Shown here: positions 43,428 to 44,567 of the stretch, piece by piece
Numbering within the stretch: the first letter of the stretch is position 1
Layout of the letters: every line of letters begins with the position of its first letter
Origin: Spirochaetota bacterium
Lineage (GTDB): Bacteria; Spirochaetota; UBA4802; UBA5550
Reading direction: 5' to 3'
NCBI GenBank assembly: GCA_963663865.1
Contig: OY760686.1
Location: 2,560,001 to 2,624,000, forward strand
DNA length: 64,000 nucleotides
Notes under the pieces: model-generated
The model's database searches: none
Told to the model about the DNA's origin: nothing
What the model saw: the letters and a program-made list of their open reading frames with translations, nothing else
Translations under genes and position numbers: made by a program

Positions 43428-43440
43428 GTTTTCAAAGAAC
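43428..43440 (-). promoter_or_regulatory. boxA-like element in the flaB-flaB spacer
   Basis: Minus strand GTTCTTTGAAAAC, matching the Firmicutes-type rrn boxA. Confidence 0.55.
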
Positions 43441-43474
43441 CTGCACTAAAGCTTATTCGCAGTTTTCGTTTTCA

Positions 43475-44326
43475 TCAGCCGGCCAGTAGCCTTAAAGCTG
43501 TCTGGTTTTGTATATTAGCCTGGGCGAGCATCGCCGTACCGCTCTGAACAAGAACCTGATTTTTGGTGAAGTCTACCATTTCTTCAGCCATATCAGCATC
43601 TCTTATCCTGGACTCAGCGGCTTGAATGTTCTCAAACGCGGTCATGAGTCCTTTAGCGGTCATATCCAGCCTGTTGTAGTACGCACCGAGGTCTGCTCGC
43701 TGCTTGGAAAGTACCTGCAGGGCATTATCAAGAACTCCAATGGCTTCATTGGCTCCGCCAGGAGAGGAAAGCGAAAGGGATATTCTCCCTGTACCATCTG
43801 AAAACTTGAATGCCTGAGCAGTCATAGTTCCAATGTAAACTCTTTCTCTCTGGTTCTGGTTTGCACCGAGATGGAACCACATACTTGCCTTCGGATTAAT
43901 TTTTGAAAATTCTCCTGTAAGTACCTTGAATCTGTTAAACTCAGCAGTCGAAGCTACCCTGTTGACCTCGTCGACAAGAGCCGAAACCTCAACCTGAATA
44001 AGTTGACGGTCTGTGTTGGAATAAATTCCGTTAGCGGACTGAATTGAGAGTACCCTTATCCTCTGGATAATTGAAGCAGTCTGATTCAGATAGCCTTCAG
44101 CCGTCTGAACAAAAGACATACCGTCTTCGGTATTTCTCGCAGCCTGTCTCAAACCTTGAATCTGAGTCCTCATTTTTTCAGAAACCGCAAGACCGGAAGC
44201 GTCGTCTCCTGCCTTGTTGATTCTTTCGCCTGAAGCGAGCTTTTCCATGCTGCTCTGCACATTCCAGGTCGTAAACTTCAAAGTCCTGTTGGCATTAATT
44301 GCACTCATGTTGTGATTAATTATCAT
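43475..44326 (-). CDS. flaB: Periplasmic flagellar filament core protein (first copy)
   Basis: Start at MIINHNMSA after [40 protein letters not shown]. Confidence 0.97.
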
Positions 44327-44357
44327 TTTACACTCCTTTGTTTCTCTGTTTCTGTGT

Positions 44358-44371
44358 TGGCTTCCTTGCCA
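44358..44371 (-). promoter_or_regulatory. CsrA-type binding hairpin in the flaB leader
   Basis: TGGC-AAGGAA-GCCA with GGA in the loop, plus a second GGA in the SD, as in CsrA-regulated flagellin leaders. Confidence 0.6.
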
Positions 44372-44494
44372 GTATGGTCGAGGGCATAACCACATTTTTC
44401 AGCAGGTTGGGCAGTGCCCGGTTCCAGGCTTGTATCTGGGCTCATACAAACTTGCAACCTCGACTACACTCCCCGGACAGCAACTGATGAAAAC

Positions 44495-44535
44495 GTTTTC
44501 AAAGATCCGCGAATAAGCAGGGATTACTCCCTGCT
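44495..44535 (-). promoter_or_regulatory. GNRA hairpin (boxB-like) plus boxA-like element in the flaB leader
   Basis: AGCAGGGA-GTAA-TCCCTGCT, then GATCTTTGAAAAC 8 nt later. Confidence 0.55.
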
Positions 44536-44539
44536 CGAA

Positions 44540-44567
44540 ATGTCGTCACCTCTGGCCGTCAGGTTTA
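44540..44567 (-). promoter_or_regulatory. Putative sigma-28 promoter of flaB
   Basis: Minus strand TAAA-N16-GACGACAT (consensus GCCGATAW), just upstream of the leader hairpin. Confidence 0.5.

Follow-up and report, generated by a model that had tools for sequence, protein, structure and literature searches.

In a 64,000-nt stretch of a Spirochaetota bacterium genome (GenBank assembly GCA_963663865.1, contig OY760686.1, positions 2,560,001 to 2,624,000; hereafter the window), two flagellin genes, flaB_a and flaB_b, lie in tandem. We found that flaB_a is enclosed by a long-range leader-trailer helix and that two boxA-like motifs accompany it, in an arrangement resembling that of a ribosomal RNA (rRNA) operon (rrn). 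Comparison with related genomes showed that the flaB_a helices are real, selected RNA structures, and sequence comparison showed that the boxA copies are conserved and match those of rrn. An earlier note on this DNA had proposed that this flagellin mRNA is handled like pre-rRNA, a proposal that our results support in part; each check suggested there that could be run favoured it. The reading we lean towards, at somewhat better than even chances, is that a single sigma-28-driven flaB_a-flaB_b transcript is organized on the rrn-operon plan, with antitermination and closure assisted by Nus factors and boxA. Coordinates of all features are given in Table 1.

The two leader arms pair with two trailer arms about 1 kb downstream, and flaB_a lies between them. 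When the arms were paired by hand, the outer helix (H1) contained 12 bp with one G-U pair and the inner helix (H2) 15 bp with two, all other pairs being Watson-Crick; on re-reading, the arm coordinates and the pairing given in the earlier note were correct. A repeat search recovered a 12-nt perfect core of the arms. Co-folding of leader and trailer, as had been suggested, gave -55.5 kcal/mol for two 76-nt flanks, compared with -26.0 and -10.1 kcal/mol for each alone. The cognate duplex reached -47.5 kcal/mol, whereas the same leader paired with 26 foreign trailers at a mean of -23.5 kcal/mol (standard deviation (sd) 6.9). Duplex prediction left unrestricted (260 x 180 nt) gave no useful information.

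A DNA search of 40 relatives yielded 30 loci, 29 of which had a recognisable flagellin start. BoxA-like motifs (no more than two mismatches) were present both in the leader and 13-56 nt past the stop codon at 27 of these 29 loci, and one exception had only 175 nt upstream. The arm sequences vary widely among genomes, and their complementarity is kept: trailer arm 1' has a partly conserved GAGTAAG-type core and a covarying inner part, and most H1 positions show 3-6 pair types. Across the 27 loci, the mean duplex energy was -34.5 kcal/mol for cognate arms versus -22.0 kcal/mol (sd 0.98) for permuted ones, and none of 20000 permutations reached the observed value; the cognate trailer was the best partner at 16 of the 27 loci. 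The outcome was the same for H1 alone and H2 alone (0/20000 each), and it was unchanged with 48 genomes or with 32 genomes (one per genus). Minimum free energy folds of the full-length region (~1150 nt) contained 12-50 leader-trailer pairs (mean 27) in all 32 genomes, whereas chimeras with foreign leaders had a mean of 10 pairs, with none in 7/32 and at least 12 in 11/32. In MAFFT alignments of 27 and 15 sequences, the coding sequence (CDS) was well aligned and the leader and trailer arms were out of register. The arms are conserved and covarying in orthologues within one order (48 genomes), with their position kept.

Inverted repeats flanking a flagellin gene could also be DNA sites for site-specific inversion, that is, for flagellin phase variation. 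The earlier note had taken the G-U pairs as favouring RNA pairing over such a site, and this was borne out: the sense strand paired better than the antisense strand at 26 of the 27 loci (Wilcoxon p = 6e-6), as is expected of RNA pairing with G-U and not of a DNA site. In addition, the arms covary and retain no recombinase core, no recombinase was found among the 8 neighbouring open reading frames (ORFs), and the orientation promoter-leader-gene-trailer was the same at all loci examined. An inversion system is therefore extremely improbable.

The helix takes a different form in families f6 and f2 (loci L184-L199), where the partner of H2 lies inside the CDS, ~30 nt before the stop codon, and the leaders track synonymous changes in Gln-Pro-Gln codons. 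In the same families, the leader strand of H1 shares sequence with the 3' half of the 5' hairpin, and only one of the two folds can form at a time.

We then compared the boxA-like motifs with the rrn operons of the same genome. Both 16S genes carry GTTCTTTGAAAACT ~86 nt upstream, a sequence type that we take to be the boxA of many non-proteobacterial rrn operons. The flaB spacer copy (boxA2) was identical to this rrn leader boxA at 14/14 positions, and the 13-nt leader copy (boxA1) matched both the rrn leader boxA and the rrn spacer boxA at 12/13 positions, so the two sites singled out earlier as boxA-like do resemble the native rrn elements. Columns T-CTTT-A-A of boxA1 were invariant across the 27 loci. 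The rrn leader boxA is preceded by a GGGGA-U7-UCCCC hairpin with a U-rich loop and pairs with the 16S trailer, and so belongs to the 16S leader-trailer stalk. The 16S-23S spacer contains a second rrn boxA, GATCTTTTAAAAC, which follows two tRNA genes. With this genome and its relatives taken together, 20 of 21 16S loci had the leader motif, the remaining locus having only 86 nt upstream; the spacer boxA (no more than one mismatch) was present in this genome and at 9 of 14 loci of relatives. A hairpin precedes boxA1, the spacer boxA of a second flagellin operon and the boxA of the rrn leaders alike. The two rrn operons (contig positions 3049-5017 and 8504-10472) lie 5.4 kb apart.

The motif is not common at random. 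Allowing one mismatch, the 13-mer occurred twice in the window versus 0.13 expected, and TCTTTGAAAAC occurred 12 times in the 3.16-Mb genome versus 2.2-6.3 expected under order-0 to order-2 models. Six of these 12 sites lay inside long open frames and six were non-coding, the latter comprising two rrn leaders, two at flaB_a and its spacer, one in the second flagellin pair and one before an M4 peptidase gene. All six non-coding copies read in the same direction as the gene or rRNA downstream of them. The exact 12-mer TTCTTTGAAAAC was found only four times in the genome, twice in rrn. Outside rrn and the flaB spacer, the only exact copy of TTCTTTGAAAAC (contig 1505598-1505609) lies in a 278-nt spacer past a UvrD-like helicase gene, 173 nt 5' of the thermolysin-like M4 peptidase gene. 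The short length of each element is the one point in favour of an origin of the complementarity and the motif copies by chance or by unselected duplication; such an origin is refuted by the comparative data, namely the permutation tests, the conservation in 32 genera and the motif expectations in window and genome, and we give it next to no weight.

Table 1. Positions of the features in the window.
Feature	Position	Strand	Remarks
Sigma-28-type promoter	44540..44568	minus	TAAA 44567-44564, 16-nt spacer, -10-like GACGACAT 44547-44540
5'-proximal hairpin	44534-44517	minus	7-bp stem, GUAA loop, boxB-like position
Leader arm 1 (5' strand of H1)	44518-44507	minus	12 bp with 43462-43451
boxA1 GATCTTTGAAAAC	44507-44495	minus	Internal loop between H1 and H2
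Leader arm 2 (5' strand of H2)	44495-44481	minus	15 bp with 43481-43467
Hairpin of the untranslated region (UTR), GNGCCCAGA-type loop	44425..44454	minus	Strongly conserved in most genomes of the order
Putative CsrA-type sites	44333..44370	minus	Hairpin GGC-AAGGAA-GCC 44370-44359; Shine-Dalgarno AAGGAG 44338-44333
flaB_a CDS	44326-43475	minus	Flagellin of 283 amino acids; Pfam Flagellin_N and Flagellin_C
Trailer arm 2' (3' strand of H2)	43481-43467	minus	Spans last codon and TGA stop of flaB_a
Trailer arm 1' (3' strand of H1)	43462-43451	minus	Four A residues separate arms 2' and 1'
boxA2 GTTCTTTGAAAAC	43440-43428	minus	flaB_a-flaB_b spacer, after the trailer; GGTTCTTTGAAAACT over 43427..43441
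Anti-ribosome-binding-site (anti-RBS) strand	43406..43426	minus	Directly past boxA2; 11-nt perfect complement to 43123-43113
Long spacer hairpin, GGGAGGG loop	43293..43340	minus	18 bp; stem covaries across 27 genera
flaB_b Shine-Dalgarno end, start codon and first codons	43112..43133	minus	Partner of the anti-RBS strand, ~300 nt downstream
flaB_b CDS	43125-42280	minus	Flagellin of 281 amino acids; Pfam search
Intrinsic terminator of the operon	42196..42235	minus	13-bp stem, then T tract

Roles of leader-trailer helices and boxA in rrn operons have been described, and Nus-aided meeting of distant pre-rRNA strands has been proposed (PMC10250234); NusB-NusE binds boxA together with adjacent double-stranded RNA (PMC3177189). 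The E. coli rrn operon follows the order hairpin, boxA, 5' strand, product (~1 kb), 3' strand, spacer boxA and next long-range strand. The same order is seen in the flaB region, which would be read as 5' hairpin, boxA1 amid the 5' strands, flaB_a, 3' strands at the stop codon, boxA2, anti-RBS strand, flaB_b and terminator. The two systems also differ. The flaB_a helix encloses a translated ORF, with the stop codon inside the helix, and the promoter is of the sigma-28 type; boxA1 lies in an internal loop between H1 and H2, whereas the rrn boxA of this genome pairs with the 16S trailer. Likewise, in a comparison with processing helices of the rRNA type, the flaB_a helix encloses an ORF and not a structural RNA. 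None of the 4227 Rfam covariance models matched at gathering scores in the whole window, or at E <= 1 within 42100-44700.

In the Nus-assisted reading, NusB/NusE would bind the boxA copies and modify RNA polymerase. An mRNA held untranslated by CsrA would expose its long leaders and cistrons to Rho, and the modified polymerase would resist Rho over the ~200-350-nt leaders and the ribosome-free cistrons. The Nus complex may also tether the upstream strand to the polymerase while the distant partner is still to be transcribed, as has been proposed for pre-16S rRNA. Once closed, the loop could protect flaB_a mRNA, or provide a place where RNase III cuts the two cistrons apart. Ribosomes that terminate on flaB_a must open the stalk, as the stop codon is covered by H2', and the closed form would therefore mark untranslated molecules. 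Genes for NusB, Rho, RNase III (rnc), CsrA, FliA and FliW are all encoded in the genome, and csrA and fliW are adjacent.

A rival explanation does without Nus factors. The helix, as a real RNA structure, would close the flaB_a message for stability or ribosome recycling, and the boxA-like motif would either bind another protein or serve as a conserved single-stranded spacer. The permutations, covariation and full-length folds fit this explanation equally well, control of decay by pairing between 5' and 3' UTRs is known from Bacillus subtilis hbs (PMC5737220), and the rrn and flagellin motifs differ in the Treponema-type family f21. It accounts poorly for the 14/14 match to the rrn leader boxA, which is held across the order at three flagellin positions, and for the common strand orientation of the six non-coding copies. 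We know of no other factor for the boxA motif, and consider this explanation possible but unlikely.

Several observations weigh against the Nus-assisted reading of the flaB operon. Each helix is shorter than 20 bp and the stalk is broken by an 11/4-nt internal loop between H1 and H2, which makes cleavage by RNase III uncertain. At three of the 27 loci (L016, L018, and L025), the cognate duplex had no advantage over foreign ones, and in genus g8 an internal mismatch of H1 has persisted without compensation. Of the 11 boxA1 bases, just 3-10 were unpaired when the first 16 genomes were folded at full length. The covariation tests were run with our own alignment-free scripts. For flaB_b, leader-trailer pairing gave no signal, with 12464 of 20000 permutations reaching the observed value. 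Finally, the flagellin spacer motif of family f21 differs from the f21 rrn leader motif, so that rrn and flagellin boxA do not match in every group. Co-variation of the rrn boxA with the flagellin boxA between orders was also considered, and was unsupported in f21.

A different long-range pairing was predicted at flaB_b. The duplex between the anti-RBS strand and the flaB_b start was predicted in 41/41 genomes; two genomes with AGG in place of AGA at codon 2 carry a matching C upstream, and the spacer from Shine-Dalgarno to AUG covaries with the anti-RBS strand. With these compensatory changes in its favour, the pairing may mask the start of flaB_b in the operon mRNA. A boxA just 5' of a strand with a distant downstream partner is thus present in three places, namely the rrn 16S stalk, H2 of flaB_a and the anti-RBS strand. 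Further conserved blocks, AAGGAG and a CAAGGGAGGG Shine-Dalgarno, lie in the spacer 3' of the GGGAGGG hairpin; these blocks and the GGGAGGG loop are probably CsrA sites. GGA motifs of the CsrA type occur in both flaB leaders, and in the flaB_a leader the site columns are invariant across the 27 loci, suggesting that CsrA could bind there.

A second flagellin operon, flaB_c-flaB_d, was compared in 20 genomes (L210, contig 142892-144764; L211-L229), and in 17 of them its spacer carries a GC-rich hairpin and a boxA. In 19/20 genomes, flaB_d has a 9-nt leader strand whose complement lies 19-43 nt past the stop codon, and the terminal pair of this helix is G-C in 9, U-A in 5, G-U in 2 and mismatched in 3. 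Extended to spirochaetes at large, the proposal would be that flagellin pre-mRNAs pass through rRNA-type machinery, in which a Nus complex loaded at each boxA travels with the polymerase, blocks Rho on ribosome-free RNA, delivers the upstream strand over 0.3-1 kb, closes flaB_a and masks the flaB_b start. We put this forward tentatively, as less probable than not. If true, the RNA-chaperone role of the antitermination complex would be a general device that includes mRNAs.

The complete layout was found in 48 genomes from 32 genera, all of one order. A strict leader pattern (hairpin plus boxA) was searched in 401 genomes sampled across the phylum and matched in 51, of which 50 belonged to the order of the window (80 genomes). 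Among the 321 genomes outside the order there was one match, which was not beside a flagellin gene, and a reversed control pattern also gave one match. Within the order, the strict pattern was present in 30 of 39 genomes of family f1, in addition to the genome of the window itself, and in 10/11 of f6, 6/8 of f2, 2/6 of f3, 1/9 of f7, 0/5 of f5 and 0/1 of f4. The pattern under-counts, since two f5 loci have the full layout with a variant hairpin. In all 28 complete new loci, boxA2 lay 22-45 nt past the stop codon. When a looser leader pattern was run over 596 Gb of contigs, 6 of the 120 matches listed came from spirochaete flaB leaders, with chance accounting for the others.

In family f21, a boxA-like motif (no more than one mismatch) was detected at 4 of 16 loci, always in spacers between tandem flaB genes. 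At these loci (L242, L244, L246, and L248), which belong to another order, the motif is accompanied by a hairpin. One of these genomes (G054) matches three published Treponema denticola primers. Family f21, which includes a genetically tractable species, shows a looser version of the layout, with a boxA-like motif in the spacer of tandem flaB genes. In family f19, the motif was near flaB at none of 16 loci.

Outside rRNA, boxA is found in the nut sites of phage lambda, and it also occurs ahead of long untranslated RNA, in front of CRISPR (clustered regularly interspaced short palindromic repeats) arrays. Apart from phages, boxA/Nus and leader-trailer helices have mainly been seen as rRNA devices, with few recent exceptions such as suhB, whose 5' UTR is a Nus/boxA target in E. 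coli and Salmonella (PMC5725501). Like suhB, the flaB operon has a boxA in its mRNA leader, which would be a Nus target outside rRNA. The survey in that paper concerned gamma-proteobacteria and sites within 50 bp of the start codon, whereas flaB belongs to Spirochaetota, has two boxA copies per operon and ties them to long-range helices. The string "flagell" does not occur in the main text of PMC5725501, whose gene-function supplements may bear on novelty, and spirochaete terms do not occur in PMC13753749.

The hbs mRNA of B. subtilis is abundant, like that of flaB, and its paired ends are tied to ribonuclease access and translation (PMC5737220). By the same token, the 5' UTR of flaB_a pairs with the 3' end of its own cistron. 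The hbs mRNA is not known to have a boxA, and the flaB_a helix is bipartite, reaches the stop codon or the CDS and lies inside an operon. Control of flagellin translation by CsrA-FliW has been described (PMC4894983, PMC6529632), and the flaB operon has in common with it the GGA motifs in the hairpin loop and Shine-Dalgarno of both flaB leaders, as well as adjacent csrA and fliW. CsrA-FliW acts on translation, leaving boxA and the leader-trailer helix unexplained; it would supply the ribosome-free state in which antitermination becomes useful. The flaB promoters of T. denticola have been mapped, with boxA unmentioned in the accessible part of that report (PMC9481697). In the literature on boxA or antitermination with flagellin, flaB or spirochaetes, we found no description of a flaB boxA stalk, in agreement with the earlier view that this would be new for a flagellin mRNA.

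What appears new is that a protein-coding operon reproduces each element of the rrn plan in turn, with strong covariation and conservation across an order. Such an operon may be a natural setting in which to ask whether distant strands pair with the help of the antitermination complex, and its helix partners can be mutated without harming ribosomes. It also suggests how a CsrA-silenced, ribosome-free flagellin message could escape Rho termination or degradation, and would add an RNA layer to the unexplained control of FlaB ratios in spirochaete flagella.

The remaining features of the locus are consistent with a single transcript. A block of the form TAAA-N15/17-GnCGAnAn is kept 5' of the hairpin in relatives, and the genome has a FliA gene; the conserved sequence agrees with the sigma-28-like promoter that the earlier note had placed before the leader arm, and the flaB_a transcript is predicted to start at ~44533. 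The GNRA hairpin described there was confirmed as a hairpin, its stem being conserved in relatives, while its loop is variable, and the GNRA loop is incidental. No terminator-like site was found between flaB_a and flaB_b, and past flaB_b there is a strong terminator. The spacer was 291-481 nt long in those 27 of 32 genera with flaB_b in reach; it was conserved and highly structured, and it contained no conserved promoter block. A candidate promoter of flaB_b itself, based on a 14-nt repeat, was rejected: the repeat stretch forms one strand of a covarying hairpin, and no -35/-10 block is conserved upstream.

FlaG and FliD genes follow flaB_a-flaB_b. A search of sequencing runs found no RNA run of this organism; metatranscriptome contigs contained a 0.05-0.13 share of the sampled words, with a few short, low-depth identical pieces that left the leader uncovered. 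In some f1 genera, another element replaces the GNGCCCAGA-loop UTR hairpin. A further hairpin, whose centre is of the GCAGUGCGG type, is conserved in the window (42236-42279) and in relatives; it separates the flaB_b stop codon from the terminator.

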